NCBI GenBank assembly: GCA_963742635.1
Contig: CAVUMW010000019.1
Span: forward strand, 270,479-334,478
Source of the DNA: an uncultured Actinomycetes bacterium
Lineage (GTDB): Bacteria; Actinomycetota; Thermoleophilia; Gaiellales; Gaiellaceae
DNA: 64,000 bases
Direction of reading: 5' to 3'
Below, piece by piece: positions 38,100 through 62,650 of this stretch; position 1 is the first letter of the stretch; each line of letters starts with the position of its first letter. Both the position numbers and the translations under genes were made by a program. The notes under the pieces were generated by a model. The model ran no database searches. It was not told the DNA's origin and was given only the letters and a program-made list of their open reading frames with translations.

Positions 38100-38617
38100 G
38101 TCCTCTCCATGGTCAGCTTGGTGTCGGGTGCGGTCGCGATTTCGGCGAGCTTCGCCTCGACTCGACGGCGGGCTCGTAGCAGGCGCACGCGGAACGCCGT
38201 CGGCTTGATGCCGAGCGCGCGTGCGGCCTCCGCCGGGGTCAGCTCCTCCCAGGCGGTCAGGAGGAGGGCCTCGCGGTCGAGCGGCGAGAGCTCGCTCAGG
38301 GCTGAGGCGAGCTGTGGATCGAGCTCGAAGACCTCGGGCGAGGCGATTTGCTCGACGAGCTCGTGCTCGTGGCGCCGTGCCGTCGCGACCTTGCGCGACT
38401 CGGCGAGCAGGAGGTTGCGCGCGGTCGCGTAGAGCCAGGGCCGCGGATCGTCCTCGGGCACGTCGGCGAGGCGTCGCCAGGCGATGGTCATCACCTCGGC
38501 CGCGAGCGCGTCCGCGTCGAGACTCCCGCGTCGGCGAGCGTAGGCCCTGATCGCGCCGAGGTGGGAGAACACGGGGCGGAACCGCGCTTCGGGAGTCCCA
38601 GTCGATTGCACGGCCAT
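38096..38617 (-). CDS. ECF-type RNA polymerase sigma-70 family factor
   Basis: 173 aa. Region 2 (EVMTIAWRRL...PWLYATARN) and region 4 HTH (LSPLDREALLLTAWEELTPAEAARALGIKPTAFRVRLLRARRRV). Confidence 0.8.
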   Translation of the reverse strand: MAVQSTGTPEARFRPVFSHLGAIRAYARRRGSLDADALAAEVMTIAWRRLADVPEDDPRPWLYATARNLLLAESRKVATARRHEHELVEQIASPEVFELDPQLASALSELSPLDREALLLTAWEELTPAEAARALGIKPTAFRVRLLRARRRVEAKLAEIATAPDTKLTMERT

Positions 38618-38665: not shown

Positions 38666-40343
38666 TCACGCGGCGCGGGGCAGGCTCCTGCGACCGAGGT
38701 GCTCCCCGATCCGTTCGGGATCGAGCGGGAGCACGGCCAGCTCGGGCGGAGGACGTCGAATGAAGCCGTGCAGGAGCATGAGGTCCTCGGCCTCGCCCGC
38801 GGTCAGCGGGTCGTCCGGCTCGGCGGCGGATCGGCAGAGCGCGATGCCGGCTTCGATCTCGAGTCGCGCGCCCGCGCCGGGTGGCAGCGGGCGGACCGCA
38901 CGGACCGCGCCTCCGGAGACGAAGAACGCCTTCTGCCACCCCGGCTCCACGGCCGGCGCGATCAGGCACAGCTCGAGCCGCCGGAGCCGGTCCAGGCGGC
39001 GCAGGCGCTCGACGACCTTCTCCAGCGCGTCGATCCGGTCGCGCAACCGCGCCGCCTCCTCGTAGCGCTGGCTCTCGGACAGGTGGTCGAGCCGCGCGCG
39101 CAGGCGCGGCAGCGGACCGTCCTGGAGCAGGCCGTCGAGCTCCTCGTCCGTGCAGGAAGCGAGCGCACGCGCGGCGAGCGCAGCTTGCCGCCGCGAGCCG
39201 ATCGGCCCAAGCGGGCCCGGCTTCTTGGAGACGACGAACTCGTCGCCACGGCGCCGCAGGTAGACGCCCTGCTCTTTCCTACGCCCGCGCGAGTTGGCCG
39301 GCGGCTCCAACTCCCGGATCAGTCGCAACTCCTCCAGCGCCGCCTCGAGCTCGGAGCCGAGCACGCGCCACTCGATCCGGGCCAGAGCGAGCAGTGCCGC
39401 CTCGACCGACGGCCGCTGGCGGTCGCTCCGGAAGTACGAGCGGAGCCGGGCGCGCAGGTCACGGGCGCGGCCGACGTAGAGCACCTGGTCGTGCCCGTCG
39501 CGGAACAGGTACACGCCCGGCTCTGCTCGGAGCGCCGCGGGCCAGGTGCCGCTTCCCGTGCACTCTGCGCGTGCGGGGCGCGGCCAGGCCGCGCAGCTCC
39601 GACAGCGTCCTCGCGCCGCGTTCCTGGGCGAGCCCGATCAGGTGCACGAGCACCTGGGCCGTCGCCTCGGCGTCGGGCAGCGCGCGGTGACAGGGCTGCG
39701 TCGGAACGCCGAAGAAGTGCGCGAGCGAGGCCAGCCCCACGCGGCGGAGCCGTCCTTCGAGCAGGCGGCGCGCGAGCGCGGCCGTGCAGAGCGGGGGCTC
39801 GGACAGTCGCCGGTCGCCCAGCTGCTGTTCGAGGAAGCGCTGGTCGAACCGCGCGTTGTGCGCCACGAGCAGGTCGTCGCCCGCGAACGCGAGGAAGCGG
39901 CGCAGCACGCTCGAGATCGACGGCGCGCCTCGAAGCTCCTGCTCGCGCAGGCCCGTGAGCCGCGCGATCGGCTCCGGGAGCGCGACCCGCGGATTGACGA
40001 GCGACTGGAACGAGCCCACGAGCTCGAGCCCCCGCACGCGCACCGCGCCGATCTCGCAGATCTGGTCGCGCCCGGCCGCGAGCCCGGTCGTCTCGAGGTC
40101 GAAGACGACGAGCTCGGCTTCCTCGAGCAGCGGGTCCGGGAGGCCGCCGACGAGCGAGACCGTGGTGCCCGTGCAGACGACGCGGCTGTCGCCGGCGGTG
40201 ACCTCTTCGAGCAGCGATCGGGCCAGGCCGTCGGGGATCGAGGACGTGGCGAAGAGGGCGCGAGCCGCCTCGACGACGGACAGCGTCCCCCGCTCCTCGA
40301 GCGTGTCCACGAGCCGGTCGAGTGCGTCGAGGGCCAACTGCAC
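38666..40343 (-). pseudogene. DEDD (DnaQ-like) exonuclease fused to GIY-YIG (UvrC/Cho-like) nuclease, one frameshift at ~39,520-39,530
   Basis: The N-terminal ORF (39,459-40,343) has ExoI VVFDLETTG, ExoII LVAHNARFD and ExoIII HRALPDAEAT. The downstream ORF (38,666-39,514) has (E)PGVYLFRDGHDQVLYVGRARDLRARLRSYF. The two join if one nt is removed near AGCAGAGCC. Confidence 0.8.
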
Positions 40344-41601: not shown

Positions 41602-42006
41602 CTACGTCAGCTGAGCGATTACGACGACGAGCAGGACCACGATCAGGATCCCGAGCGCCGCGAAGCCTCCGAGGACGAGCTTGACCTTCCGCAGCACGAC
41701 CGCCCAGGCGACCCAGGACAGCAGCTCGGACGCGAGTCGCACGCGCTGGAACCAGATGCTCGAGATCCCGAGCCGGGCGAGCAGCCGGCCGATCGGGCTC
41801 GACTCGAAGCGCGCCAGCTCGGCGGCTCGGACGCGCTCCTGCCACCGCATCGCCATCTCCTTCGCCTCGCGCCTGGCCGCGCGCTGGTACAGCGGGAGGC
41901 TCTTGCGCCGGGTCTGCCAGTACGCGAGCGAGTCGCGTGCGTCGTCGAGCGGTGGCGGCGCGAGCATCCTCTCGATCAACAGCAGGTCCGGGTCTCGCAC
42001 GCTCAT
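41602..42006 (-). CDS. Hypothetical membrane protein
   Basis: 134-aa ORF. Charged N-terminal half, then two hydrophobic segments (LLSWVAWAVVL, GGFAALGILIVVLLVVVIAQL). Confidence 0.45.
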   Translation of the reverse strand: MSVRDPDLLLIERMLAPPPLDDARDSLAYWQTRRKSLPLYQRAARREAKEMAMRWQERVRAAELARFESSPIGRLLARLGISSIWFQRVRLASELLSWVAWAVVLRKVKLVLGGFAALGILIVVLLVVVIAQLT

Positions 42007-42972: not shown

Positions 42973-45900
42973 TTACTTGAACCGGAAGTTGGCGCGCTTC
43001 TCGGCGCCGTCTTTCAGGCGCACGACGAGCTGGCGGCATCCCCGCCAGGTGCCGTCGGTCTTCCAGACGTACTTGTACTGGTCGAGCAGCGGGTCGTACG
43101 TGAACCCGTCAGGGCCGAGTATCGTCGGGACGAGCGGCCCGGTCACAGGGCCCCCGCAGGTCATTGCCTGGCTGGCCGGATAGCCCGGCGCAAAGATGTT
43201 GAGACCCCGGAAACCGGAGAGGCTGAACTTGATCGGAACAGCGCTGCCCGCGTTGGCGTCGTTGACCGCCGGCAGGTTGTTGATCGGGGAGAAGAAGCCG
43301 GTGAAGGAGTACGCCGTCACGCGGTAGGTCAGGGGGCCGTCGAACACGTGGCCGGCTCTATCCACGGCGTGCGCGTGGATCGTCTTCGTCCCGGCCGAGC
43401 TCGTATCGAGGGGATCCGGGACGGTGCAGGAGTCGATCCCGGAGCCCGAGTCCGCGCAGTTCGCGTGCGCGACCGATCCGAAGCCGTACGTCGTGTTCAC
43501 CGTCACCGTCGGGTTGGACTCGTCGATCGGAATGGTCAGCGATCCATGAGAGCCGTCACTGCCCTGGAAATCCAGCGAGTGGACGCCGGTTCCGTCGACG
43601 GAGAGCGAGGTGCCGGGCGTGAAGGCCGCGCCGTCGAGGCTGTAGCTGATGCCCGGCGCGCCGCTGATCGTCACCGAGACAGCGCCCGTGAACCACCCGT
43701 TCGCCTGCGGGCCGGTCGCATGCGCTTGGATGTCGCCGGTCGGCGGTGGCGTGACGACCGACTTGAGGAACGCCTTGTTGCTGGTGACTGCGACGTTCCC
43801 GGAGCCGTCGACGGCCTGGATGATCCATTCGACGTCGTTACCGGACAGCGGCCCTGCGCCACTCCAGCGGGGCGAGCTGTGCGACATCTCGATCGACTTC
43901 CAGACCCCGCTCGCGTCCTTGTAGAGCGCGAGCACTCGCTTGACACCGTTCGCGCCGCCGACGTCGTCCGTCACGTCGACGGCGAACGCGACCGTCGTGT
44001 CCGCCTTCGTGACCTCGACGGGCCCGAAGCTCGACGGCGTGAAGTCGGTGACGCTCGGGGCCGTGTAGAAGACGTTGCCCGAAAGCGCCGTGAAGCGCCG
44101 CTGGATGCCGACTCCCTGCGGCTCGAACGTGCTGTCGCTTCGGAACTGCCCGCTGAAGAGCACGAGCCGCTGGCGCGTGCCGTTCGGAGTCGCGAGCGAG
44201 GCGATCGACTGCAGCTTCGTCGGGTAGCTGACGTCACCGACCAACTCCGGCGTGAACGCCGAGAAGTCGTCGATGACGCGGCTGAAGGCTGCGTCGAAGT
44301 TGGCCTCGTCGGTCGAGGTGAGGGCGGTGAGCAGCGCGCCGTGCGCCACGAGACCCGGCTCTGTGACGTCGAGCTTCGTCGTCGGCTCGATCGGACGGCG
44401 ATTCTCGGCGAACGCGTCGTCCGAGACGTAGTAGCTGCCGATGGCGGTGTCGACCCTGGTGAAGCTCGGCGAGACGTTGAAGGGCGCGGTCGGCAAGCCG
44501 GTGGCCGAGTCCGTCGTCGTCACCGCCGGAGTGGGTGGCGCAGGCGTGGCCCCGGTGCCGACCCTGTACATCGGCAGGCCCATCAGGTTGGCCTCGTCGA
44601 TCACCTTGAGGTGGTATCCGCTCTGGGTCGGAGTCGCCGCGTACTCCTGCTTCGCGAAGGCGAGCGCCTGGCCGACGGTCATCGAGCCGTCGAGCCGGTC
44701 GGCGAACAGGACGTTCAGCTTCTCCGTGTAGAGCACAGCCGCGGTGTCGCCGAGCCCGTAGCCCGTGTTGCCCATGAAGTCGACTGCCCCGCTCTGGGCG
44801 TATGACTGTGCCCAGTCCGCGCTGAGCGAGTTGCCGAAGACGAGGTCCGACACCGGCAGAGCCGAATGACATCCCATCGTGAAGATGACCCGCCCACTCG
44901 TCGAGCGGCCCGCGAGATCGGCGGTCGTGTAGAGGATCGTCTCGCGCTGCGCGGCGTTCTCGTCGGCCGGCAGGGCGCGGCCATGGTCGTAGTGCGCGTT
45001 GATCGAGTCGAGAATCGGCGGGTTCGACGTAGGGAACATCGCCGCCAGCAGGTCGTTCTTCGACCAGGAGTTGTTGATCAGCTCCTGGGCGTTGTTCGTC
45101 CCCAGCCTGGCCTTGAAGTCCGCCGAGACCCGCGACGCGCCGTCCGAGAGGAAGTCGTAGCCGGTTGTCAACGCCCTCGTCGGGTTGATCGCGCCGTTCC
45201 GGTTGATGTACTGGGTGATCTGGTCGCGGATCTGGTTCGGCGTCTCGACCAGCCGCCCGACCGCGAGCTCGGGGACATATGGCCCCTGGCCCGAGTAGTT
45301 GACGTCGCCTAGCGGATCGTCGGTCGGCAAGAAGCCGAGCCCGTACGTGCTCAGGTACTGGTTGTTCGTGGCGCCGAAGAACGTGCTCGCGTACCCGCGC
45401 TCGTTCGCGTACGCGGAGTTGTCGAGCACGCGCCCGAACGGAACGCCGGCGGCGTCGTCGCCCACGACGACGATGTACTTGACCGACGGCCGGACGATCA
45501 GCGGGTTGTCGAGCAGGTTGCCGACGGCCCGCACGACGTCGTTGGCCTTCGCCGGCGAGCAGGAGTCCGTGGCGCGCGCGTTGAGGGCGTTCAGGACGGC
45601 GGTGTTCGCGTCGACCGGGATCACCGCGCCGCCTGCCGCGTCCGATCGCGCCGCAAGTGTCTGCAGCCGGCTGAGGACGTCGTTCTCGGCCTGGAGCCCG
45701 TAGAGGTCGCCGAAGCGCTTCGAGGCGAAGAGATAGAGGGTGCTTGCGGTCGTGGGCACGGCCGGCATCGGCTTGGTGACGCCGGTGCCGGGGCCCTGTG
45801 GGTTGGTGCACGTCGGCGGCAGGGCGATCGAAGGCGATCGCTCGATCCGCAGCACCCACGGATCGTTGCTGTAGCCCCCGTCGAAGCTCGCGACCTGGAT

Positions 45901-48900
45901 CGTGTACGTCCCGCCCTCGGGTGAGACCGCTGACACTTCCTCGTCGGCGAGGCCGCGGTTGTCCGACACGTCGAGCGCGGCCTGTCCGTTGACCGCGTCC
46001 TGCGGAACGTCGGTGAGCGCCTCGGGCGTGATCGACTGCGTGCGCTGGCCGAGCTCGAACGGGACGTCGCCCGCGGAGGGCGACTCGGCGCCGGGGTGCG
46101 GCGTCCGGAGCGGTGCGATGCCCGGCCCGTAGATGACGAGATCGTCGTCCACCTTCAGGTGGCTGAGGTGGATCGTCAGCTGCTCGCCCGGATTGGCATG
46201 GACCTGGAAGTAGTCGCGGTCGGAGCCGCTCGACGTGTACCCGAGGTAGAGCGTGTCGGGCTGCGCGGGCTGCGCGGTGTCGGGCTGCCCGTTCGCGGGC
46301 TCACCAGGCTCGGTGATCTGCGTGCTCGCGGCCTCCGGGCGCCTGGACGGTGCCGTTGAGGCCGGTCGCCGCGATCTTCGCGGTCGCCGACTCGGTTCCC
46401 AGGCTGAGGCCGGGCTTCGCGTGGAAGGTGAGCTGGTAGCTCGTGCCGAGCTCCACGTTGGTGAGGTGCCAGTTGAGCTCGTTCTCGGGTGACCTCAGCG
46501 TCGGCTCGTCGACCGTGCCCGGCCCGCCCGAGAGCTGCGTCGAGCCCGACACGTATCGGGCATCCGCCCCGACGTGAACGGCGACCGAGCCGTCGACCGG
46601 CGGCCCCGCTCCGTTGAGCTGGAACGAGACCGTGTACGTCGCCGTCCCTCCGTCCGTTGAGAAGTCCTGGAGCGGGAACCCGGGTAGCGGGAGCTGCTCC
46701 CAGTCGTACGCGGTCTTCAGGAGGACGGTGGCGAGCAGATCCTCGCTGCGTCGAGCGGCGGCAGTCCCGCACGAGAGTCCTTGAGCGCTGATGTCCTGCC
46801 CGCTCGCGTCCTTGAGTAGCGGATGCTGGTCCTGGAGTTCGCGGTCTCCTTTATCGCGCCAGCGGCCTTGGCCTGAGCGAGCGTGTCCGTGTCCGCGCAC
46901 AGGAAGTTGCCGGTCGGCTCGAAGCGACTGCGGGATCAGGCCGAGCGTGATGCCGCCGAGCGGGGACGCGTTCGGCTTGTCGTCACCGCCAGCGGAATGC
47001 CGCCGAGCGGAGTGCCCACGAGATCGATGCCGGCCCAGAGGAATGCCGCCGAGCGGCGTGCCGACGCGGATGCCGCCGAGCGACGCCCCGAGCGGGATGC
47101 CTCCGAGCGGGATGCCCCCGAGGGGAATGCCGACCAGACGCCCTGCAAGGCGAGCCCGAGCATCGTCTGTTGGCCGAGGCTCTGGCCGTTCGGCGCGGAC
47201 CCCGGCTGCTGGTTCACGCACCGGCACCAGTCGGTGAGGTTCTGATCCGGCGGCGTGCCCGCGATGCCGCCGAGCGGAATGCCTCCCAGCGGCAGCCCCG
47301 GCGAGCGGAATGCCGCCGAGTGGGCTCGACGCGAGATTGAGCTTGTCGAGCGTGATCCCGGCGACGACCTGCGTCCCAAGCACCTGCGCGAGCGTCACGT
47401 TCTGAGGCGGAGTGCCCTTGCAATGCTGCGGCTCGACGCCGAGGTGCGCCTCCCACGTGTCCGGCAGCACGAGCGGGACGTCGACGACAGCGAACCCCGC
47501 CGGAAGGCGGTTCTGGCTCAGGTTCTCCGCCGGCAGCCGATCCCGCCCACGGAATGCCGCCGAGCGGGATGCCGCCCACAGGAATTCCTCCGAGCGGAAT
47601 GCCGCCCAGTGGGATGCCGCCGAGGCGCGCCGCCGTCGTCTGCGACTGGCCGCGGATCGCGTCGAGCGGGATGTCGTCGATTGGAGCAGAGGCGGCGCCC
47701 GGGTCCGAGCTCTCAGGCCCCGCAATCGAGATCGACGCGGTCAGGCTCGAGGGGGTCGGCCCCCAGTCGGGGAACGAGTTCCGTCCGCCGATGCCCGTCG
47801 TCAGGTTGACCTGGCCCGAGCCGTCCGCCAGCGCGGTCCAGACGTTGAAGTTCTGTCCATGCGTCGCGGACGAACGCGATGCGCGCGCCGTCCGGAGACG
47901 AGCTCGGGTCGGCGTCGAAGATGTCGCGTTCGGCCAGGTCGACCTGATCGGAGCCGCCGCCTGGTCAGCGTCCACACCGATCCGAACGGTCCCGCGCGGT
48001 CGCTGAAGAACGCGATTCTGCCCATCGGGCGACCAGTCCGGATCGGAGTCGCGCGCGGCGTGTCAGCTGTCGCGACCCTGTTCCATCCGAATTCTGCCGG
48101 TAGATCTCTTCGTTCCCGTCGTGCTCGACATGAGGCCGAGCTGCGTGCCGTCCGGAGACCAGGAAGGGCTGGCCTCGTTCGCCGCCGTGTTGGTCACGTC
48201 CACGGGAGTGCCTCCGGTCGCGTCACGATGAAGATGTCGTACTGTCGATGACGCTGCCCTGGAAGGCGATCTTCGTCCCGTTCCGGCGACCAGGCCGGCT
48301 GCTGCTCAGGCCGGGGATCGGTGGGGCCAGCTGCGTGAGGCCCTGCTGCTTCATCACCCAAGCATGTTGGAGGTTCCGCCCCTGGTCGCTTGAGAAGGCG
48401 ACCTTCCTCCCGTCGGGCGAGATCGAGGACAGGTTGTCGGTCAGCTCGTTGGCGCAGACCCGTCCGCGTTCTCGAGTAGATCTCGAGGTTGCCGTCGCGG
48501 TTCGACTCGAAGACGATCCGCCGGCCCTGCCAGGAGCCGCCGAGAGCGTCAGTATCCGCCCAGTCGCTGGGGGCGAATACGGCCCCCGGGTACATGAAGC
48601 CTGTTCCGCCGAGGACGTACATGAGGTCGAGGCCGACCGTGTCGCCGGAGCGAGGCAGAAGTCGTGCGCCGGTGCTCGTCGCAGGAGAGCATGCTGACAA
48701 CGTCACCTCTGAGCCGAGGACCGGCTCCCACGTCGTCGGTGCCGTCGCCGGCCGGGTCTCGTTCCGTCGTTGGTGTCCGCGTACGTGGCTCCTGGCAGCT
48801 GGTGTTGCTGTAGTAGAGTCGGCGCCGAACTGCGTAGAAGGGCGACGCGGAGCCTCCTCGCCCGGGTCCTGGTCCGTTGTGGTTCGCTCGTTGAAGAAGG

Positions 48901-49183
48901 CGCCCATCTCCTTCGAGCCGCCCGAGAGGTCCGTCACCGTCATGGCGACGTAGAGGAACCCGGCGTTCGCGCTGAACCTCGCCGAGCCCGTCGAACGTGA
49001 CGTCGTAGTGGGCGGCGTCTGTTCATTGCTGTCGCCGATCACCGTCGATGGTGGGCGTGGTGGCCGCGGGCGGCGACCGCCTGGAAGTCGATTGGCGGGA
49101 CGTGCGGCGCGCTTGCGCAACCCCTGGAGCGCCAGTGCCAGTGCCCCGATGACGCCAACGACGAGCCGCAGCTGATTCCTCAT
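42973..49183 (-). pseudogene. Left-arm copy of the giant secreted PD40 / GGIPL-repeat / PPC / C25-like peptidase protein; N-terminal ~2.4 kb heavily frameshifted
   Basis: ATG at 49,181-49,183 (MRNQLRLVVGVIGALALA). Between ~46,745 and 49,183, recognisable pieces (AGFLYVAMTVTDLSGGSKEMGAFF, RIVFESNRDGNLEIYS, EQQPAWSP) alternate between frames every 20-100 codons. There is one further frameshift at ~46,320. The last 1,059 codons (42,973-46,152) form one intact ORF. Confidence 0.75.
46936..47625 (-). repeat. Degraded blocks of 15-bp (P-L-G-G-I) tandem repeats inside the left-arm giant gene
   Basis: Three blocks (~46,936-47,131; 47,262-47,320; 47,537-47,625) of GATGCCGCCGAGCGG-like units on the + strand. 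Confidence 0.7.
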
Positions 49184-49275
49184 GAGGAACAACCCCCAGG
49201 ACGTTAGTAAGTTCGGCTCGCTTTTCAAAGCCCGGGCGTCCTTTCGATCGGCGGCGCGAAGGCGTACCCTCGGCC

Positions 49276-52200
49276 ATGGACGCGCAGGGCGATGCACCCT
49301 TCGAGCCGTACCTCCCCCGGCTGCTCCAGCCGGCGGCACGAGCGCCGGACGTGCGCTGGCGAGAGAGAACGACGGCTCACTCGTCTCGGTCGACCTCTCC
49401 CGATCACCGCGCTTGCGGCTTCAGGCAAGGGGCCGGGGCGGGTGCAGAGGAGCTCGTCCTGGCGATCAGCGGCGTGTTCGAAGGCCGTCCGGATCGCGAA
49501 CCGTCGGCGGGCGACACCCTCAAGTTCCGGGGGAGGCGCTCCTGATTCTTCTCCGGCGACGCGCACGCCGAGCGAGCCTGCCGCGCGGCCTCTTGAGATG
49601 AGTGGTTCATCGAGCGTACGGAGACGATGAGCTCCGTCGGCGAGGTGAACCTCCGGATGTCCACCGGCATTACTCGGGGACCTGTCACTTCTTCCTGGTG
49701 GAATCGAGCCACCGCGAGTGCTCGCGGGGCCCCGCCGCGACTGCCACGATCCAGCTCGAGGACGAGTCCGCTGGCGAGGTTCTCTCGCTCAGCCCCGGCG
49801 CCCAGCGGCTGCCGCGGGTTGGTCCCGATTGGCTTGCCTTGCCGAGCGGCGCTGCTCGCGCTCGACCGCGAGCCGGACGCCGCGGCCCCGCCGGTCGTCG
49901 AGGACGACGGCCGGCGTCGTGGTCCTCGAGCTCGAGCCGTTCGTCCCGATCGCGCTTCGCTCCTACCTGCGGCTCGAGGTGGCCGAGGCGGAGCACCGGC
50001 AGGTCACCGCCTGCTTTCGCGGAAGTTCAGCGGCGAGGCGGTGCTGCTCCGGACAGCCAGGACCAGCCGCATGCTCCTGCAGGCTCTCACATCGTGGGCC
50101 GTGTGTCCGGAGTCGGGCTGACCTGGCTGCAGTTGCATGTTGCACGGGCAGCTTCACCTGGCCGCCGGCCGTTCCCCTCGACTGACTGGGGCCGATGAGG
50201 AGCAACCGCTGCGGATGCGTGATCTCGACGAGGTATCCGCCCTGACGTCCGCGGCGGGCGTCCACCGTGCACGCCTTCGCCGGTGACATCGGCGCCAGCG
50301 CTCGCCGTACCCACGCCGTCATGGGCGACACCGTCAATCTCGCCGCACGCGGCCGCGCGGGCGAGCCGGGGGAGATCCTCGCTACCGCCGAGGTGCTCGA
50401 GCGCTCGCCGACCCGCTTCAGTACTGCACCGCAGCCGTTCCTGGTCAAGGGCAAGGAGCGAGCGATCACCGCGTACAGCGTCGGCGCCTGCTCACCGGTG
50501 TCGCGGAGGGGACGAGCCTCAGGAGCTGCCGATCATCGGTCGCGAACAGAGCTGGCGGAGCTCCAGCGCGCTCGCCGGCGTTCGCGGTTGCGCCAGGGCC
50601 AGGTGGCCGAGCTCGTCGGCAAGTCGCGTCGTCGAGGAGCTGAAGACGATGACCGTCGGCTTCACGCAGCTCGTCGCGCGCTGTGACCAGTACGGACGTC
50701 CGTCTCCGCTCGCTGCTCCGCCCGCTCGCCGGAATCACCGATGCGGAAGCCCCCGCCGGACGCGGTTCTGAAGCCCTGGATCGAGGCGGTCATGCCCCAA
50801 GTGGCTGCCGCTGTCTTGCGATTCCGTCGCACGCGGAAGTGCGCATGACGCCGGAGACCGAGGAGATCGAGTGGCGTTCCGTCGCGAGCGTGCTTCCAAG
50901 ACGGTCGAGGAGTTCCTGCTCCGCGTGCTGGCGGCGGCCCACGCTCATCGTCTTCTATAGAGCGCACTGGATCGACGACGCCTCGCACAGCGTCCTCCTC
51001 CATCTCGTGCGCAGCAGCGCCCCGCGGCCCTGGCTCGTGGCGATCACGCGCCTGCCGCAGGGCTTCGTTCGACGAGCCCGGAGACGGCAGCAGGTGCCTG
51101 GACGTCGCGGCGCTCCCCGGCGCAGGAGGTCGCGCTCGCGGCCGCCGGAGAGGTCGCCCTTTCCGAGGAGTGTCGGGCGAGGTGTCCGAGCGCTCGGGCG
51201 GCAACCCGCTCTTCGCGCCGAGCTCGTCGTGCTTCCGGGCCGACGGTGGCGTTGCCGCGCTGCCGGAGACGGTGGAAACGCTGATCACGACGCGGATCGA
51301 CACGCTCGAGCCGGGCGATCGTTTTCCTCCCAACGCCTCGGTCCTCGGGCCCATTCGCAGCTCGACCTACTCGCCGACGTGCTGGCGGACGAGCTCGCGG
51401 ACGAAGCGGCATCCTGCAAGTGCCGGCGCCCACTCGGGGAGTTCGCGGCCTGGGAGGGGACGAACGAGCTGGCCGGTTCCGGCAGATCCACCCCCTTCCG
51501 GACGGTCGCGTACGAGGTAGTTTCTTTTCCGTACTTCTACGGCGTCGGCACCGTGCTGGAATCCCCGCGCCGGTCAGCAGGCTCCGTCGAGCTCGCACCT
51601 CTCCGCTCCAGGTCACCGTGAGGACTACCAGCGGGCCTGGCGCTACTCCGTCGCCGTCGGCCAGCTGGCGCAGCACCGGCTTCGAACGTCGATGCCGCCG
51701 AACTTCCAGCGGGTGCTCGCCGCCCGCCTGCAGCACCTCCGCCGCTCGAGGTGGCGCATGTTGCCGAGGCGCTCGGGGACGTCTGCCAGCTCGCGGCGCG
51801 GTACGAGGAGGCCGGGGATGCGTATCGCCTCGCCCGCGAGCGGGCAGCGGACGGGCTCGTGCAGTCGCGCCTCATGCGCAAGGAGGGGATCTGCGATAGT
51901 GTCGGCAGCTATCCCGAGGCGCTCGAGTGGTATGGCTGTGGGGCTGCAGGCGCTGAGCCCCAGGCCCACAACGGGCTGCAGGGCCGTGTCCAGCTCGAAG
52001 GTATTCGATTGCAGGCGGCAGAGCACGCCGAGCTGGCCGGCGGATCGCGCCGCGCTGGACACGCCTACTCCCACCGCGCGTCAATCACATCTCGCTGGGC
52101 GAAAAGGATGAACCGCCGAGCACGCTCGTCTTGCGCTCCCGATGCTCGAGGAAGCGGAGACCTCGTTCTCCAGTCCAACGTCGTCAATATCGAATCGAGG

Positions 52201-52835
52201 CGTATTACGCCGGGCGCTGGGACGAGGCGTCCGAGCTGTATCGGAAGAGCGGCGAGCTGAGCGAGCGAGTGGGCGACGTGGTCAATGTGGCCCGCGCGCA
52301 CAGGTGAGATCGTCGTGGGCAAGCTCGACGAAGCCGAGGCGCTGTTCTGAAGCTCGGCACGGTGTGGCGCGCGGCTCGGTACCCGGGTGGGCATCGCGCT
52401 CGCGACCTCGAACCTCGGCCGGGTCGCCGCGCGGTCGCTTCGACGAGTGCTCGTGGGGCGCTGACGTCCAGGGGCTCGGCTCGGATGCCCTCGGCCAGGA
52501 GACCCGGGCCCGGCGCGCCGAGTGCTTCGCTGGCGGGGCGCTTCCAGGAGGCCCTGGACCTCGCGCTGACCGTGCTCGAGGCGGCCGGGGAGAACCGGCT
52601 CCTCTACCCCTTCCTCGAACGGCTCTACGGTTATGCCCTCGTCCAGGCGCGGCGGCCGGGGATGAGGCGCGCCCGCGCTTCGAGCGGAGCCTCGACCTGG
52701 CCGCGAGCTCGAGGCCGACTATGAAGTTGGGCTGACGTCTGAGGATGCCGAGGCGACCCTGACGTCGAGGTGGAGAGCAACGCGATCCTCGAGCGCCTCG
52801 GCGTCGTCTCGACGCCACGTGTGCCGCTGCCCTGA
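49276..52835 (+). pseudogene. Left-arm copy of adenylate/guanylate-cyclase-AAA(STAND)-TPR protein, extensively frameshifted
   Basis: Starts MDAQGDAPFEPYLPRL and ends ...ILERLGVVSTPRVPLP with a TGA at 52,833-52,835. In between, only short in-frame islands match the right-arm copy. Confidence 0.7.
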
Positions 52836-52839
52836 CGCA

Positions 52840-52904
52840 TTGCCCCGGCATGAATCGGCACGCGGTTTAGGAAACCGCCGCTCTATGCACTGAGCTACAG
52901 GGTC
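52840..52904 (-). pseudogene. Mirror copy of the tRNA-Arg(CCT)-like element with a T-arm deletion
   Basis: Reverse complement of the 56,510-56,581 element, but GCATGTTCGATTCATGC is reduced to GCCGATTCATGC. Confidence 0.45.
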
Positions 52905-53006
52905 TTACACGGCCACGACAGCCGAGCTTGTTCACCGTTGCCGGGTCCACCGCGTGTTTTCAGATCGCTCACGAATCCCTTGCACCGGATCGCTACGGTC
53001 GGCGTT

Positions 53007-54680
53007 GTGCGACGGCTTCTCCTCGTCGCTGTTTCCGCTGCCGCGGCGGCTGACCGGCGATGCGGCGCCGCGATTGCCCGGGGCGCATCGTCTTCGCGAG
53101 CGAGCGCGGTTCGACGCTCGAGAACACCGGCATCTACTCAGTTCGCACGGACGGCTCCTCCCACCCCGGACACTCGTACGCAATCCGGGTGGCGGTGCGG
53201 CGGCGCGGACGTGGTCACCGGGGATGGCAAGCTCCTCGCCTTCTGGAGCGAGGGACCCCCCCCAGCCGAGGCGGCCACGGCGCGCGGCCACGTGCTTCGC
53301 CGCCTCACTCCGCGCGGGCTTGTCGCCAGCCGCCGACCGACCCGCCGAGCTGGTCACTCGGCGGTCGAAGCGTCGCCTTCTCCGGCGAGCGCGGATCACA
53401 ACGTGGCATCTGGGCCGTTGCTAGGGACGGAACACATCTCCGGTTTCTCTCGCCCTGGGGCTTGCGCCCGTGTGGCCACCCACGGGAGGCGTGATCGCGT
53501 TCGGCTCGGGCCACATCTTCGTCATTTCGGCCAGAGGAGGGAGGGCCCGGCGTATCACGACTGGACCCTTCGACTCGAGCCCCGCCTGGGTCGCCGGACG
53601 GCAGGACGATCGCGTTCGTCCGCTCCGACTCGAACGGCGTGGTTCAATCGATCGATCTCGTTTCCGCCTCCGGCGGCATCACCACCGCCGTCTCTTCCGT
53701 GGGCGGGACGTGGACATCGGTCGGACTCCCCAGTGGTCGCCCTTGGGCGGCTGGTCGCGTTTGAGGCGAGGTCGAGCGTCTACGTCGTGCGCGTGCGAGA
53801 TAAAGCGCTGAGCAGGCTGCGACGCAACGGCCTATTTAGGCCCGACGGCAGGCATATCGCGTTCACCTCCTGGGTCCGGCGTGTACGTGATGAATGCGGA
53901 CGGCTCCCGTGTCCGACGCGTGATGACGAGCGGGGGTTCGAATTTCAGCGATGGACCGGCGTGGTCCCGACGGCCGCACGCTCGTCTATTCCCTGACACT
54001 GCTCCAGAGCGACTTCGAGATCTTCACGGTCGGGCCGACGGCTCCGGGCTCCGACAGCTGACTGAAATCGGCGAGGACTGGATGCCCGCGCGGTCTGAAG
54101 CCGACGGACGATCGCCTTCGTCCGGCGCGGAGTGATCTGACGATGGCCGCGACGGGATGCGGCCAGCGCCGGCGGTTCTTCCAAGGCATGCAGCCTTCGT
54201 GGTCCCGAACGGCATCAACGACGGTTCGGGCGTGAGCATCCGCTCGGTGAACGGTGGCCCCGGCGCCGCGGAGCGATCGGTTTCAGCCCGGGGTACTTCG
54301 CCTGGCGGGTGGCGAGATCGCGATCGTGCGCGAGCGGCCCGCTTCGCGGTAAAGTCGCGACCGGAGTCGAGCGGACGATCGCCGACGCTTCGACGATCTG
54401 CCCGCCGGGGAACGAAACGTCGATCGCGGTTCCGGGGGACTGGCTGCGACGCCGAGCAAGCTCGTATTCGCCGTCGTGTGCGGCATGACGGTCGGTTCGC
54501 CCTCGACCTCGGCGGAGATCGTGTTGGCCGACGGAACTGGCCTCAGGGCGCTCCCAATCGATGGGCTCGACACCGGCTGGTCGCCCGACGGTACGCGAGT
54601 CGCCTTCGTCGCGGAAAGCGAGCGCCTGCGCATCGGGACGAGCAGGCTCGACGGCACCGGCCGAACGGCTGTCGTCAGAG
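53007..54680 (+). pseudogene. Left-arm copy of the PD40 (TolB-like) repeat protein, frameshifted and cut at the palindrome centre
   Basis: A GTG start gives VRRLLLV.... It aligns to the reverse complement of 54,682-56,404, with clustered indels (for example a 6-nt deletion at the signal peptide, extra G and CC, and a ~20-nt deletion). Confidence 0.7.
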
Positions 54681-54681
54681 T

Positions 54682-56404
54682 CTCTGACGACAGCCGTTCG
54701 GCCGGTGCCGTCGAGCCTGCTCGTCCCGATGCGCAGGCGCTCGCTTTCCGCGACGAAGGCGACTCGCGTACCGTCGGGCGACCACGCAAGTCGGGCCGTG
54801 TCGAGCCCATCGATTGGGAGCGCCCTGAGGCCGGTTCCGTCGGCCGACACGATCTCCGCCGAGGTCGAGGCGAACCGACCGTCGTCGCACACGACGGCGA
54901 ACACGAGCTTGCTCGCGTCGGACGACCAGTCCGGAACCGCGATCGACGTTTCGTTCCCCGGCGGGCAGATCGTCGAAGCGTCGGCGATCGTCCGCTCGAC
55001 TCCCGTCGCGAGACTGACCGCGAACAGGCTCGCTCCGCGCACGAACGCGATCTCGCCACCCGCCGGCGACCAGGCCGGGCTGAAACCGGCCGCGACCCGG
55101 CGCGCGGGGCCACGGTTCACCGAGCGGATGCTCACTCCCGAACCGTCGTCGAAGGCCAGCTGTATGCCGTTCGGGGACCACGAAGGCTGCGTGCCTTGGA
55201 AGAGCCGGCGCTGGCCGCTCCCGTCGGCGGCCATCATCCAGATCACTCCGCGCCGGACGAAGGCGATCTTCCGTCGGCTTGCAGACCACGCCGGCATCCA
55301 GTCCTGCACCGAGTTTCGAGTCAGCTGTCGGAGCCCGGAGCCGTCAGCCCCGACCGTGAAGATCTCGAAGTCGCTCTGGAGCAGCGTCAGGGAATAGACG
55401 AGCGTGCGGCCGTCGGGGGACCACGCCGGTCCATCACTGAACTCGAACCCCCGCTCGGTCCTCACGCGTCGGACACGGGAGCCGTCCGCATTCATCACGT
55501 ACACGCCGGACCCAGATGTGAACGCGATGTGCCTGCCGTCGGGTGACCACGTGGGCCAGTCGCCGGTGCGTCGCAGCCTGCTCAGCGCTTCATCTCGCAC
55601 GCGCACGACGTAGACGCTCGACCTCGCCTCGAACGCAATCAGCCGCCCCGAGGGCGACCACTGGGGAGTCCGACCGATGTCCACGTCCCGCCCACGGAAG
55701 AGACGGCGGTGGTGTCCGCCGGCGGCGGAAACGAGATCGATCGATTGAACCACGCCGTTCGAGTCGGAGCGGACGAACGCGATCGTCCTGCCGTCCGGCG
55801 ACCAGGCGGGGCTCGAGTCGAAGGGTCCAGTCGTGATACGCCGGGCCCTCCCTCCTCTGGCCGAAATGACGAAGATGCGGCCCGAGCCGAACGCGATCAC
55901 GCCTCCCGTGGGTGACCACACGGGCGCGAATCCGTCGCGGGCGAGAAACCGGAGATGTGTTCCGTCCCTAGCAACGGCCCAGATGCCACGTTGTGATCCG
56001 CGCTCGCCGGAGAAGGCGATGCTTCGACCGCCCGGTGACCAGCTCGGCGGGTCGGAGTCGCGGCTGGCGACAAGCCCGCGCGGAGTCAGGCGGCGAAGCA
56101 CGTGGCCGCGCGCCGTCATCAGAAAGAGGCCTCGGCTGGTGTCGCCGGGGGCGGAGTGCTCGCTCCAGAAGGCGAGGAGCTTGCCGTCCGGTGACCACGT
56201 CGCGCCGCCCGCACCGCCGCCCGGATTGCGGACGAGTGTCCGGTGGGAAGAGCCGTCGGTGCGAACTGAGTAGATGCCGGTGTTCTCGAGCGTCGAACCG
56301 CGCTCGCTCGCGAAGACGATGCGCCCGGGCAATCGCGGCGCCGCATCGCCGGTCGTCGCCGCGGCAGCGGAAACGGCGAGCAGGACGAGGAGAAGCCGTC
56401 GCAC
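54682..56404 (-). CDS. PD40 (TolB-like) beta-propeller repeat protein, 3' end replaced by the palindrome
   Basis: GTG start (VRRLLLVLLAVSAAAATTG signal). 574 uninterrupted codons with more than 10 'WSPDG..IAF' PD40 repeats. Past nt 54,681 the 795-aa track ORF reads antisense of its own mirror copy. Its annotated N-terminus (to 56,602) overlaps the tRNA-like element. Confidence 0.7.
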
Positions 56405-56509
56405 GACGCCGACCGTAGCGATCCGGTGCAAGGGATTCGTGAGCGATCTGAAAACACGCGGTGTGGACCCGGCAACGGTGAACAAGCTCGGCTGTCGTGG
56501 CCGGTGTAA

Positions 56510-56581
56510 GACCCTGTAGCTCAGTGCATAGAGCGGCGGTTTCCTAAACCGCGTGCGCATGTTCGATTCATGCCGGGGCAA
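56510..56581 (+). tRNA. tRNA-Arg (anticodon CCT)-like element, imperfect
   Basis: Manual fold: D arm GCTC-AGTGCATA-GAGC. Anticodon arm GCGGT-TTCCTAA-ACCGC. Variable GTGC. T arm GCATG-TTCGATT-CATGC. Acceptor GACCCTG/CGGGGCA pairs at only 5 of 7 positions, and the D-loop GG is GC. Confidence 0.5.
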
Positions 56582-56585
56582 TGCG

Positions 56586-59500
56586 TCAGGGCAGCGGCAC
56601 ACGTGGCGTCGAGACGACGCCGAGCCGCTCGAGGATCGCCTTGCTCTCGGCCTCGGTGTCCGGGCCGCCGAGGCGTGTTCGGCCGAGTGCCTCGAGCGTC
56701 AGCGCCACTTCGTAGTCGGCCTCGAGCTCGCGGGCCAGCTCGAGGCTCCGCTCGAAGCGCGGGCGCGCCTCGTCCGGCCTGCCGCGCCTGGACGAGGGCA
56801 TAGCCGTAGAGCCGTTCGAGGAAGGGGTAGAGGAGCCGGTTCTCCCCGGCCGCCTCGAGCACGGTCGGCGCGAGGTCCAGGGCCTCCTGGAAGCGCCCCG
56901 CCAGCACGAAGCACTCGGCGCGCCGGGCCCGGGTCTCCTGGCCGAGGCGCATCCGAGCCGAGCGCCTCGAACGCCGTCAGCGCCCCGGCGAGCAGCTCGA
57001 GCGCCTCGTCGAAGCGACCCGCACGCGCGGCGACCCGGCCGAGGTTCGAGGTCGCCAGCGCGATGCCGACGCGGGTACCGAGCGGCGCGCCAGACACGTC
57101 GAGCTTCGGAGAACAGCGCCTCGGCCTCGTCGAGCTGTCCCTGATCGGAGACGATCTCGCCCTCGTTGTTCTGCGCGCGGGCCACGTTGACCACGTCGCC
57201 CACGCGCTCGCTCAGCTCGCCGCTCTGCCGGTACAACTCGAACGCCTCGTCCCAGCGCCCGTCGTAATACGCCTCGATGCCGAGGTTGTTGACGACGTTC
57301 GACTGGCGGACGAGGTCGCCGGCTTCCTCGAGCATCGGCGAGCGCAAGGCGGGCGTGCTCGTCGTCCTTCTCGCCCAGCGAGATGTGGTTGACGTGCAGC
57401 AGGAAGTAGGCGTGTGCGAGCGCGGCGCGATCGTCGGCCAGCTCGGCGTGCTCTGCCGCCTGCGAGCTCCAGTGGATGCCCTCCGTCGAACTGGCCCTGG
57501 CGGTACTTGACGCCGGCGGTCGCAAGCTCGAGCTGGACACGGCCCTGCAGCCCGTTGCCGGCTGCGGCCGAGTCGTCCAGCGCCTGGAGCCCCGGCCGTA
57601 CCATCGAGCGCCTCGGAATAGCGGCCGAGACGCTCGCGCAGAATCCCCTCCTTGCGCATCAGGCGCGACTGCTCGAGCCCGTCCGCAGCCAGCTCACGGG
57701 CGAGGCGATACGCATCTCCGGCCTCCTCGTACCGCGCCGCGAGCTCGCACACGTCACCGAGCGCCTCGGCGACGTGCGCCACCTCGAGCGGCGGCAGCTC
57801 GAGGTGCTCGGCGGCGGCGAGCGCGCGCTCGAACAGCTCGGCGGCGTCGATGTTCGCGAACCGGTGCTGCGCCAGCTGGCCGACGGCGACGGAGTAGCGC
57901 CACGCCCGCTCGTGGTCCTCCGCGTGCAGAAAGTGGAGCGAGAGCAGGGCCGCGACCTCGTCGGAGCCCTGACCGGCGCGCGATCCTCGAGCGCCGTGCC
58001 GACGCGCCCGTGGATCTCGCGCCGGCGGCGGAACGACAGCCCCTCGTACGCGATCGCGCGGAAGAGGTCGTGCCGGAACGCGCAGCGTCGCCGTCCCCTC
58101 CCAGGCCGACGAACTCGCCGAGCCGGTCCCAGCGCTCCAGGTCGCCGACGTCCGTCGAGCTCGTCCGCGAGCACCTCGGCGAGCAGGTCGAGCTCGAACC
58201 GGGCACCGAGGACGGAGGCGTAGCGCAGCAGCATCCGGTCGCCCGGCTCGAGCGTGTCGATCCGCGTCGTGATCAGCGTCTCGACCGACTCCGGCAGCGC
58301 GTCGACGCCGCCGTCGCGCCCGGGAGGCCGCGACGAGCTCGCGCACGAAGAGCGGGTTGCCGCCGGAGCGCTCGGACGAGCGTCGCCCAGCAGGTCCTGC
58401 GCGAGAGGGCGACGTCTCCGGCGGCCGCGAGCGCGAGCCGGGCGGTCGCCTCGCCGGGGAGCGGCCGCGAGCTCGAGCACCCGCTGCCCGTCTCCGGGCT
58501 CGTCGACGAAGGGCACGGCCCTGCGGCCGGCGCGTGACGCACACGAGCCACGGCCGCGGGGCGCGTGCTGCGCACGAGATGGAGGAGGACGCGTGCGACG
58601 CGTCGTCGATCCAGTGCGCGTCCTCGATGACGATGAGCGTCGGCATCATCAGCACGCGCGAGCAGGAACGCCTCGACCGTCTTGCAGACGCGCTCGCGAC
58701 GGAACTGCCGGCTCGATCTCCTCGGTCTCCGGCGTCATCGGCACTTCCGCGTCGAACGGGATCGCGAGCAGCGGCAGCCACGGCGCGAGGTCGGGCATGA
58801 CCGCCTCGATCCAGGGCTTGAGCTGCGCGCCGGCCTCCGCGGGCTCTCCGCATCGGCGTGATCCCGGCGAGCGGGCGGAGGAGCGTCGCGGAACGGCGAA
58901 GTAGGGCGACGGACATCCCGTACTGGTCGCAGCGCGCGACGAGCTGCTTGAAGCCGACGGTCATGCGTCTTCAGCTCCTCGACGAGGCGCGACTTGCCGA
59001 TCCCCGGCTCGCCGACGAGCTCGACCACCTGGCGCTGGCGCATCCGCGCCGCCGTCGACCGCCGCGTGGAGCTCCGCCAGCTCCGCGTCGCGGCCGACGA
59101 TCGGCAGCTCCTGAGCTCGTCTCTGCCTCCGCGACGCCGGTGACGGCGCCGACGCGGTACGCGGTGATCGCTCGCTCCTTGCCCTTGACGAGGAACGGCT
59201 GCGGCTCGGTCTCGAAGCGCGTCGGCGAGCGGTCGAGCACGTCGGCGGTCGCGAGGATCCCGCCCGGCTCGGCGCGCGCGGCCAGCCGCGCGGCGAGGTT
59301 GACGGTGTCGCCCATGACGGCGTACGTGCGGCGAGCGCTGGCGCCGATGTCGCCGGCGAAGACGGGGCCGCGGTTGACGCCCGCGCGGAGCGTCAGGGCG
59401 GAGCCCTCGTCGAGGATCGCGCGCAGCGCCCGCAGCATTCGCTCCTCGTCGGCCCCGGTGGTCGACGGCGCGCCGGCGGTCAGGTAGAGCTTGCCCGCCG

Positions 59501-60414
59501 TCGACGTCGATGTCCGACTCGAGCCAGGTCAGCCCGAGCTCCGACGGTCACACGGCCCACGATCGCGGCGAGCGCGTCGAGAGCCTCGGCGACCGCGTCT
59601 GGTCCCTGCCGTGCGAGCAGCGCGTCGACGCCCGTGAACTTCACGAAGGCGACCGTGACCTGCCGGTGCTCGGCCTCGCCGGCCTCGAGCCGCAGGTGGG
59701 CGCGAAGCGCGATCGGGACGTACGGCTCGAGCTCGAGGTCCGCGGACGGTCGGCCGTCGTCCTCGACGACCGGCGGGGCCGCGGCGTCCGGCTCGCGGTC
59801 GAGCGCGAGCAGCGCCGCTCCGCCCCGCTCGCCGGCGAGCCAGTCGGGATCGACCGCGGCAGCGGTCGCGGCGCTGACGAGAATCTCGCCGGCGCCGGAC
59901 TCGTCCTCGAGCCGGATCGTCGCGGTCGCGGCGGGCCCCGCGACGATCAGCTCGCGGTGGCTCGACTCGACCAGGAAGAAGTGGCAGGTGCCGGAGTAGA
60001 CGCCGGTCGACATCCGGAGCGTTCACCGGCGCCGACGGAGCTCATCGTCTCCCCGGTGCGCTCGATGAACCACTGCATGTCGACGAGGCCGCGCGGCAGG
60101 CGCGCTCGGCGTGCGCGTCGCCGGAGAAGAGAATCAGCAGCGCGTCGCCGCGGAACTTGAGCACGTCGCCGCCGTGGCGGTTCGCGATCCCGATCAGGCC
60201 CTCGAAGACGCCGCTGATCGCGAGGACGAGCTCCTCCGCGCCCGCCCGGCCCCTCGCCTGCGAGCCGCTCGGAGAGCGCGGTGAAGCCGGAGAGGTCGAC
60301 CGAGACGAGTGAGCCGTCGAGCTCGCGCCAGCGCTCGTCCGGCGCACGTGCCGCCCAGTCGAGCACGAGCCGGGGGAGATACGGCTCGAAGGGTGCATCG
60401 CCCTGCGCGTCCAT
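56586..60414 (-). pseudogene. Right-arm copy of double-cyclase-AAA(STAND)-TPR protein, about 15 or more frameshifts
   Basis: In-frame islands of 20-170 aa follow one another in order. They run MDAQGD...VSVDLSGFTALSERLA, then GRAGAEELVLAISGVFE...DVLKFRGDALL, then a second cyclase domain GVNRGPVFAGDIGASARRTYAVMGDTVNLAARL. Next comes the P-loop LVGEPGIGKSRLVEEL, then TPRs, ending ...ILERLGVVSTPRVPLP. Confidence 0.75.
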
Positions 60415-62147
60415 CGCCGCCCGAGGGTACGCCTTCGGGCCGTCGATCGAAAGGACGCCCGGGCTATGAAAAGCGAGCCGAACTTACTAACGTCCTGGAG
60501 GGTTGTTCCTCATGAGGAATCAGCTGCGGCTCGTCGTTGGCGTCATCGGGGCACTCGCACTGGCATTGGTGCTCCCCGGGGTTGCGCAAGCGCACCACGT
60601 CCCGCCAATCGACTTCCAGGCAGCCACCGCGGCGACCACGCCCACCATCGACGGGGTCATCGGCGACGGCGAATGGACGGACGCAGCCAGCTACGACGTC
60701 ACGTTCAACGGGCTGCCGGGAACGGCGAGGTTCAAGCACGACGCCGGGTTCCTCTACGTCGCCATGACGGTGACGGACCTCTCGGGCGGCTCGAAGGAGA
60801 TGGGCGCCTTCTTCGACGACAACCACGACGGGATCAAGGACCCGGGCGAGGACGTGATGCTCGGGTTCGCGTCGCCCTTCTCGTTCGGCGCCGACTACTA
60901 CTACAGCAGCGCCGGCTCGTCAGGAGCCACGCATTACGCGGACACGAGCACCGACGGAACGAACCCGCCCGGCGACGGCACGGACGACATCGTGGGGGCC
61001 GGGCAGGTCGTCGGCTCAGAGGTGACGTTCGAGATGCGGCATCCACTCTGCTCCGACGACACCGCGCACGACTTCTGCCTCGCTCCCGGCGACACGGTCG
61101 GCGTCGACCTCATGTACGTCCTCAGCGGCACCGGCTTCATGTACCCGGGGGCGGATGCATTCGCCCCCAGCGACTGGGCGGATCTGACGCTCTCGGCGGC
61201 TCCGGCGCCGGCCGGGCGCATCGTCTTCGAGTCGAACCGCGACGGCAACCTCGAGATCTACTCGATGAACGCGGACGGGTCTGCGCCGACGAGGCTGACC
61301 AACGACCCGGCGACGGACGACCTCCCCTCGATCTCGCCCGACGGGAGGAAGGTCGCCTTCTCGAGCGACCGGGGCGGAACCTCCGACATCTGGGTGATGA
61401 ACATCGACGGCAGCGGCCTCACGCAGCTGACCTCCGATGCCGGCCTCGAGCAGCAGCCGGCCTGGTCGCCGGACGGGACGAAGATCGCCTTCCAGGGCAG
61501 CGTCATCGAGCAGTACGACATCTTCGTCGTCGATGCGACCGGAGGCACTCCCGTGGACGTGACCAACACGGCGGCGAACGAGGCCAGCCCTTCCTGGTCG
61601 CCGGACGGCACGCAGGTCGCCTTCATGTCGGACCGCGACGGGAACGAAGAGATCTACCGGCAGAATTCGGATGGAACGGGGTCAGCGACGCGGCTGACGA
61701 ACAACGCCGCGCGCGACTCCGATCCGGACTGGTCGCCCGACGGGCAGAAGATCGCGTTCTTCAGCGACCGCGCGGGGAGCCCGTTCGGATCGGTGTGGAC
61801 GCTGACCGCGGCAGACGGCTCCGATCAGGTCAACCTCACGAACGCGAGCATCTTCGACGCCGACCCGAGCTGGTCTCCGGACGGCACGCACATCGCGTTC
61901 GTCCGCGACGCGGGTGGACAGAACTTCAACGTCTGGACCGCGCTGGCGGACGGCTCGGGCCAGGTCAACCTGACGGGCATCGGCGGACGGAACTCGTTCC
62001 CCGACTGGGGGCCGACCCCCTCGAGCCTGACCGCGTCGATCTCGATTGCGGGGCCGGAGAGCTCGGACCCGGGCGCCGCCTCTGCTCCAATCGACGACAT
62101 CCCGCTCGACGCGATCCGCGGCCAGTCGCAGACGACGGCGGGCGCGC

Positions 62148-62237
62148 CACTCGGCGGCATCCCACTGGGCGGCATTCCGCTCGGAGGAATTCCTCTGGGC
62201 GGCATCCCGCTCGGCGGCATCCCGTTGGGCGGGATCG
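62148..62237 (+). repeat. 6 x 15-bp tandem repeat encoding (PLGGI)6
   Basis: CCACTCGGCGGCATC / CCACTGGGCGGCATT / CCGCTCGGAGGAATT / CCTCTGGGCGGCATC / CCGCTCGGCGGCATC / CCGTTGGGCGGGATC. The units differ only at synonymous positions. Confidence 0.9.
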
Positions 62238-62522: not shown

Positions 62523-62650
62523 GCGGGCACGCCGCCGGATCAGAACCTCACCGACTGGTGCCAGTACGTGAACCAGCAGCCGGGGTTCACCTGCCCGAAC
62601 GGCCAGAGCCTCGGCCAACAGACGATGCTCGGGCTCGCCTTGCAGGGTGT

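Follow-up and report, generated by a model that had tools for sequence, protein, structure and literature searches.

Background

Fold-back chimeric reads make up 0.55-0.6% of the genomic reads obtained by Oxford Nanopore Technologies (ONT) sequencing, and fewer than half of them carry any sequence between their two segments (Heinz, Meyerson & Li 2026, PMC12870357). They escape adapter-based trimmers and can tangle assembly graphs (PMC12870357). In this work we focused on a giant inverted repeat in a 64,000-nucleotide stretch of the genome of an uncultured Actinomycetes bacterium (contig CAVUMW010000019.1, positions 270,479 to 334,478), which is hereafter called the window and numbered from its first base. 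The repeat folds back at base 54681, within a gene for a PD40 (WD40-like) beta-propeller protein, and its left arm changes abruptly in quality at about position 46743. The best explanation of this feature is an assembly artefact and not biology, and very probably it is a fold-back mis-assembly in a long-read, mixed-strain metagenome contig, one arm of which was left unpolished.

The repeat resembles fold-back chimeric reads (PMC12870357) in that opposite-strand segments meet at the same coordinate with a 1-nt gap and no adapter, in that the contig turns back on itself, and in that the junction is not reproduced in independent assemblies. It differs from them in that only its footprint in a finished public contig is seen, with one arm apparently unpolished and with outer arms that belong to different haplotypes. 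The left arm can also be compared with unpolished or zero-coverage stretches of consensus sequences, with which it shares a sharp onset, clusters of errors dominated by insertions and deletions (indels), the loss of reading frames and normal flanks. Polishers leave draft sequence in place where no reads map. Hairpin telomeres, such as those of Borrelia, phage N15 and the Agrobacterium linear chromosome, are a further known system, to which the repeat is similar as an adapter-free perfect palindrome at a contig end. Unlike these, it has its fold point in a conserved gene through which relatives read, very unequal arms and no telomere context.

Methods

The window has a G+C content of about 70% and is actinobacterial, judged by its nearest relative. 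The left arm from 45814 to 54680 was aligned globally with the reverse complement of 54682-64000. An outgroup to both arms, L001, was found by an exact 60-mer scan of species-representative genomes. It covers 8 kb of CAWKLE010000003.1, which is a 1.34-Mb contig from the metagenome-assembled genome (MAG) 'uncultured Actinomycetes bacterium MFD08669.bin.1.20'. L002, an 11.6-kb short-read contig from ENA (assembled with megahit), served as outgroup near the centre of the palindrome. L004 (ERZ25039568 contig_45371) and L005 (ERZ25039560 contig_27894), both about 95% identical to the right arm, were aligned together with the two arms and L001 in a five-way alignment.

Codon positions were read in the two uninterrupted frames of L001, which are 1076 and 1587 codons long and have third-position G+C contents (GC3) of 0.91 and 0.92, respectively. 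The copies of an adenylate-cyclase/AAA_16/TPR gene on the arms were compared by nucleotide alignments.

Results

The two halves of the repeat meet in a central perfect palindrome of 103 + 1 + 103 nt (54578-54784, without strand), in which identical arms (54578-54680 and 54682-54784) flank a 1-nt spacer at 54681, the fold-back point. The right arm extends to the end of the window, where position 64000 pairs with position 45814 of the left arm. The original prediction, made from the sequence alone, had proposed two regimes of divergence between the arms with a sharp switch at about 46745 on the left, and this is what the alignment shows. In the outer part (45814-46742) we counted 887 matches, 43 mismatches (43/930, 4.6%) and four one-base indels (4.3/kb). 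Substitutions ranged from 2.4 to 8.6% per 250-nt bin (predicted, roughly 3-8%). In the inner part (46743-54680) there were 7308 matches and 471 mismatches (6.1%), and relative to the right arm the left arm carried 246 deletion events (608 nt) and 111 insertion events (156 nt). These 357 indel events (45/kb) leave the left arm with a net deficit of 452 nt, as against the roughly 450 nt expected.

The change is stepwise rather than smooth, and the onset of the indels can be placed within about 10 nt: a perfect run of 125 nt (46611-46735) gives way to a substitution at 46736 and a deletion of 4 nt at 46743, after which errors are dense. Both the proportion of indels and the codon bias of the substitutions shift across this point. 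The indel-to-substitution ratio goes from 4:43 (0.09) to 357:471 (0.76; Fisher p = 5e-7) and the share of third codon positions from 76% to 40%, and the indel rate itself rises about 10-fold, from 4.3 to 45 per kb (binomial p = 9e-13). The density of substitutions is uneven within the outer part, falling from about 9% at 45814-46114 to zero at 46611-46735. The step therefore consists of indels and codon periodicity and not of substitution density, which narrows what had been claimed for it.

Within the inner part the errors are strongly clustered and deletions exceed insertions (608 versus 156 nt), with a tail of deletions of up to 20 nt. The median length of a perfect run is 5 nt. The perfect central 103 nt had been singled out earlier, and they are the longest perfect run of the inner arm, but they are no outlier, since 14 other runs measure 63-85 nt; we therefore rejected the idea that this run is special. 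The indels of the inner arm showed no link to homopolymers, in that an identical base adjoins 29% of the 1-nt deletions against 39% expected, and the classic homopolymer type of error was likewise rejected as a description of the pattern.

Differences in the outer part behave as differences between genes under selection. Left-versus-right differences there are distributed over the three codon positions as 7:4:34 (76% third, p = 1e-8), as the original prediction had noted. In the inner part the variants that both arms have in common against L001 show the same bias (18:16:96, 74% third) and are real evolutionary differences. The substitutions private to the inner left arm are distributed as 124:132:169 (40% third); neither those in 46746-49250 (51:46:56, p = 0.6) nor those near the centre (30:37:37) differ from a uniform distribution. 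The predicted picture of dense, clustered inner indels without codon periodicity was thus borne out.

Comparison with outgroups shows which arm carries the noise. L001 is collinear with both arms and about 5% diverged from each of them. In the three-way alignment nearly all inner gaps correspond to bases missing from, or extra in, the left arm. Between 46500 and 49250 the left arm agrees with the right arm wherever the latter differs from L001, and differences confined to the right arm are essentially absent. The counts of private substitutions in 46746-49250 are 153 for the left arm, 2 for the right arm and 69 for L001 (relative-rate chi2 = 147). Near the centre, with L002 as outgroup, 104 substitutions are private to the left arm, which also has 91 gapped bases; the corresponding numbers for the right arm are 14 and 0. 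In the five-way alignment, too, the left arm is the one with the private noise. The inner left arm is a copy of the right-arm sequence plus a large private error load. As a feature (46743-54577, without strand) it is a copy of the locus of draft or raw-read quality that contains no intact gene, the PD40 and cyclase genes being shattered over three frames.

Evolution of duplicate genes cannot produce an asymmetry of 153 against 2 private substitutions. Together with the derived variants shared by the two arms, this asymmetry rules out an abrupt change of selective regime, which had been kept as an option, and the outgroups favour the other suggestion made at the time, namely raw-read-quality sequence stitched onto a real paralogue or strain variant in place of pseudogene decay. 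The assignment of all inner divergence to the left arm held for nearly all of it; part of the divergence at about 49.4-52.5 kb comes from errors of the right arm, described below.

The fold point lies within the PD40 gene, the product of which was recognised in a domain scan of seven ORFs near the arms. The right-arm copy (54680-56404, minus strand) is intact over residues 1-575 and is cut 11 codons before its stop codon. By tblastn, residues 1-575 of the homologue P0001 match it in one frame with no gaps and 91.5% identity, and the match ends exactly at 54680. Five homologues (P0001-P0005, from Joint Genome Institute (JGI), ENA and Logan assemblies) are 86-91% identical; four of them are 586 amino acids long and one 595, and P0001 and P0004 have the C-terminus ...TAVVRDESGAAYLDLDW. 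The protein called from the window itself (P0006, 634 amino acids, 54215-56602, minus strand) follows the homologues as far as ...TAVVRD and then translates its own antisense strand. At the nucleotide level the relatives read ...GTCGTCAGAG followed directly by ACGAGAGC and, further on, TGGTAG, and the window reads ...GTCGTCAGAG, a single T and then CTCTGACGAC.

L002 is identical to the window up to the end of ...GTCGTCAGAG and then continues with ACGAGAGC...TGGTAG, an open reading frame (ORF) of 76 amino acids, a GAF histidine kinase and a GerE response regulator. Neither the 76-residue ORF nor the kinase is matched anywhere in the window; for the regulator there is only a distant match (37%), at 5364-5693. 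L002 and the JGI contigs L006-L009 are 89.6-94% identical to the window up to exactly 54680, and all continue with the end of the gene and other sequence. At 89-94% identity these read-through contigs belong to relatives and not to the strain of the window. In an exact scan of JGI metagenome contigs the palindromic junction gave no hit and the uninterrupted junction gave four (L006-L009, 91-94%). A search of the whole window for the ONT ligation adapter, with up to 3 mismatches allowed, gave no hit.

The uninterrupted sequence of the relatives contains a micro inverted repeat, CGTC-AGA-GACG, no more than 3 nt from the fold point (window 54671-54681; L002, approximately 7331-7341). It could have favoured snap-back formation of a hairpin molecule.

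The outer left arm (45814-46742, minus strand) is a clean haplotype consensus of a giant gene with PD40 repeats, PLGGI repeats and a C25-peptidase-like region, and it runs leftwards to the stop of this gene at 42973. The gene occupies 42973 to about 49400 on the minus strand of the left copy; its counterparts are 60491-64000 (plus strand) in the right arm and positions 3238-7998 in L001. From 46338 to 44560 the left arm is open in one frame, which matches residues 995-1587 of L001 without gaps at 95.6% identity, and one-nucleotide insertions private to the left arm are found at 46335 and 46513. Between 45814 and 46260 the right arm hardly differs from L001; the differences of the left arm from both are spaced in multiples of three. 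From about 46264 inward the variants against L001 are common to the right and left arms, and sites private to the left arm dwindle to none at 46611-46735. At least three haplotype patterns, seen as mosaic three-way sites, meet in this region, which fits a metagenome of several strains about 95% identical to one another.

The bias of the outer differences to third positions and the near-identity of the outer right arm with L001 make these differences look like real haplotypes. The original prediction had regarded the outer arms as two real gene copies; the variants are real and biased to third positions, but because the palindrome itself appears to be an artefact, a single locus in two strain haplotypes is a better reading of the arms than two paralogues in one genome.

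The product of the giant gene looks secreted. More than 1587 codons are open in L001 and the whole protein probably comprises about 2100 amino acids, with PD40 propeller repeats, tandem PLGGI pentapeptide repeats and a C25-peptidase-like region with a PPC domain. Tandem 15-nt units encoding PLGGI are located at 62150-62236, 62451-62521 and 62652-62814.

The right arm has faults of its own. Against the three agreeing references L001, L004 and L005, a block over the adenylate-cyclase/AAA_16/TPR gene (56946-60262, minus strand) carries about 130 private substitutions and about 27 one-base insertions and ends sharply at 60262; against the same references no private difference was found in 60263-62365. 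The cyclase protein is intact with 1265 amino acids in L004 and L005 and has an open frame of 1076 codons in L001; it is broken in the right arm. The private substitutions of the block are distributed over codon positions as 36:29:60, and we read them as real differences mixed with noise. These private errors of the right arm account for part of the left-versus-right divergence at left 49.4-52.5 kb. Use of the right arm as the true sequence throughout was rejected after the five-way alignment.

Beyond this block the outer right arm (60263-64000, plus strand), which continues past the end of the window, is a well-polished other haplotype of the N-terminal part of the giant gene with sparse frameshifts. 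It contains only four private substitutions and three private insertion events (62366, 62778 and 63781-2). The single giant ORF of L001 corresponds here to five frame pieces, with shifts at about 62366, 62779, 63295 and 63782 and with 96-99% amino acid identity.

The window proteins that were looked up sit on a single NCBI/ENA contig of 340,137 nt. P0197 (424 amino acids), a protein from a contig of the same length, matches residues 517-916 of the C25-peptidase-like ORF at 98% identity, after which its frame shifts; it represents a second copy of about 43407-44604, and the mirror must therefore reach at least about 2.4 kb past the end of the window. Second non-identical copies (identical ones being invisible to this search) were not found for 41602-42006, 38666-39514, 38096-38617, 37409-37843, 27985-29076, 20831-22462 and 8279-10135. 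This suggests that the right arm stops some 2.4-3.8 kb past the window end, possibly at the end of the contig.

Ends of related contigs fall at both ends of the giant gene. L003 (ERZ25039575 contig_20759, 48,313 nt), a contig of a related strain from another assembly and 94% identical to the left flank, starts at the equivalent of window position 46764, about 20 nt from the onset of the noise at 46743, and L005 ends at the equivalent of 42965. The position of the L003 end fits a node of the assembly graph or a recurrent break point, and L003 and the window contig could share one assembly graph. We read the step at about 46743 as an assembly-graph or coverage boundary in a strain-variable giant gene that is hard to assemble and contains PLGGI repeats.

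Gene order around the repeat varies among the relatives. In L004 (1-733) and L005 (1-644) a second NTPase/TPR gene takes the place of the PD40-586 gene (window 52873 and 56541), L002 (5526-5561) lacks the giant and cyclase genes between its TPR gene and PD40-586, and in L007 (2610-2911) PD40-586 lies upstream of a homologue of window 38.7-42.0 kb. Elsewhere in the window, in the main body of the contig, which is otherwise clean, an RNase_T/GIY-YIG gene, which encodes 561 amino acids in L002, is split between frames -3 and -1 by a frameshift at about 39516-39526; this reflects an indel error of the consensus or else a true pseudogene. The product called from 31329-33206 (minus strand) has 625 amino acids, and the rest of its 90% cluster consists almost entirely of sugar ABC permeases of 326-332 amino acids. 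It is probably a fused or over-extended ORF.

Discussion

A fold-back mis-assembly could have arisen as follows. A fold-back chimeric long read, made up of one strand and then its complement, would have been accepted into the assembly path, and the contig would follow the real locus until 11 codons short of the end of the PD40 gene and then turn back in reverse complement. In polishing, the reads of the single real locus had two arms to map to and would mostly have gone to the right one, and about 8 kb of the left arm (46743-54680) would have stayed an unpolished draft with deletion-biased, clustered and frame-blind errors, draft quality being kept where no read was anchored by unique flanking sequence. 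Outside the noisy stretch both arms would have been polished by different co-occurring strains, giving the mostly synonymous haplotype differences, and the switch at about 46743 would be a boundary of assembly-graph segments or coverage domains and not a biological one.

Such an origin is consistent with segments of opposite strand meeting near one coordinate, at an arbitrary position in a gene and with a junction absent from relatives. The errors of the left arm are private to one segment, rich in indels and blind to the reading frame, as in an unpolished draft. A draft from mixed strains is also indicated by frameshifts elsewhere in the window (at about 39520, and four in the giant gene of the right arm) and by the mosaic site patterns. 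The close relatives are long-read MAG or metagenome contigs, and the MAGs of Microflora Danica, the project of L001, were assembled with Flye --meta --nano-hq and given a single Medaka polishing round (PMC12313526).

Several points weigh against this mechanism. We infer the single fold-back read, the sequencing platform and winner-takes-all polishing from their presumed consequences, and a nanopore data set is established for the relatives and only presumed for the window's own contig. The error level of the left arm, about 11%, is above that of typical modern nanopore raw reads. The right arm is clean at 54.7-56.9 kb, noisy at 56.9-60.3 kb and clean beyond, which is unlike a single raw read and needs an extra assumption; reads from a paralogue or another strain, for example, may have mis-polished the cyclase gene, and L004 and L005 do carry a second cyclase-type gene beside the first, a possible source of such paralogous reads. 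Finally, the end of L003 near the step could mark a site in the giant gene that is really variable or hard to assemble.

The palindrome and its step are truly in the deposited sequence and the outer copies look like selected genes, as would be expected of a real large inverted duplication whose left copy decayed into pseudogenes after selection was abruptly relaxed inside about 46745. We consider this very improbable. In such a duplication synonymous sites should diverge symmetrically, yet the left arm shares all derived variants of the right arm and nevertheless has 153 private substitutions against 2. Neither comparable rates in the two copies nor a large excess of substitutions over indels was found; indel events at 45/kb are nearly as numerous as substitutions (357 versus 471), far from natural pseudogene decay. 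A duplication would also have to account for a conserved gene truncated at the centre with a 1-nt spacer, for a junction that occurs in no relative or metagenome contig examined, and for private, frame-breaking errors in the right arm as well. A real hairpin molecule, either the closed hairpin telomere of a linear replicon or an in-vivo fold-back at a double-strand break, with polishing as the sole artefact, would explain the 1 nt without adapter between the arms, the CGTC-AGA-GACG repeat at the fold point in the uninterrupted sequence of L002, and a mirror that seems to stop about 12-13 kb away from the centre, perhaps where the contig ends. A telomere present in many molecules would, however, give two equally polished arms, and here one is raw for 8 kb. 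The fold point lies in a conserved ORF, 11 codons from its stop, through which five related contigs continue, and it shows no telomere-like non-coding sequence; a dedicated terminal sequence, a conserved end and equal arms are thus all missing. This explanation is scarcely credible. Hardly better is the chance of a cellular fold-back in the wider sense, in which a hairpin-capped break or palindromic duplication had formed at CGTC-AGA-GACG, or a linear replicon ended in a hairpin, and the noisy arm alone was technical.

Other technical origins deserve somewhat more weight but are still unlikely. A chimera of whole-genome amplification, a PacBio molecule lacking one adapter, or two strain contigs joined in opposite orientation by an assembler or scaffolder through a low-quality bridging read would have the same outcome in the sequence, and the tests made do not tell these physical origins apart. 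Palindromes produced by amplification have reportedly been documented in long reads, in the Pacasus preprint (10.1101/173872), and the meeting of three haplotype patterns in the region also speaks for this group. Errors of PacBio continuous long reads (CLR) are biased to insertions, and the deletion-biased errors of the left arm, together with relatives assembled in the Flye style, fit nanopore better than PacBio CLR. A nanopore fold-back read accepted into a mixed-strain assembly is the origin that we favour.

On this interpretation a public MAG contig of 340 kb appears to hold a spurious mirror of about 12-13 kb and an 8-kb stretch of raw quality. Products of the artefact have already entered public protein collections, for example P0006, a PD40 protein fused to its own antisense translation, and P0197, a duplicated fragment with a frameshift. 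Even the 'good' arm of a palindrome of this kind need not be a clean reference. A perfect centre interrupted by a 1-nt spacer, arms of very unequal quality, noise that outgroups assign to one arm only, a gene broken off in the middle of its ORF and frame-blind indels form a signature, readable from sequence only, that is usable to screen catalogues of long-read MAGs.

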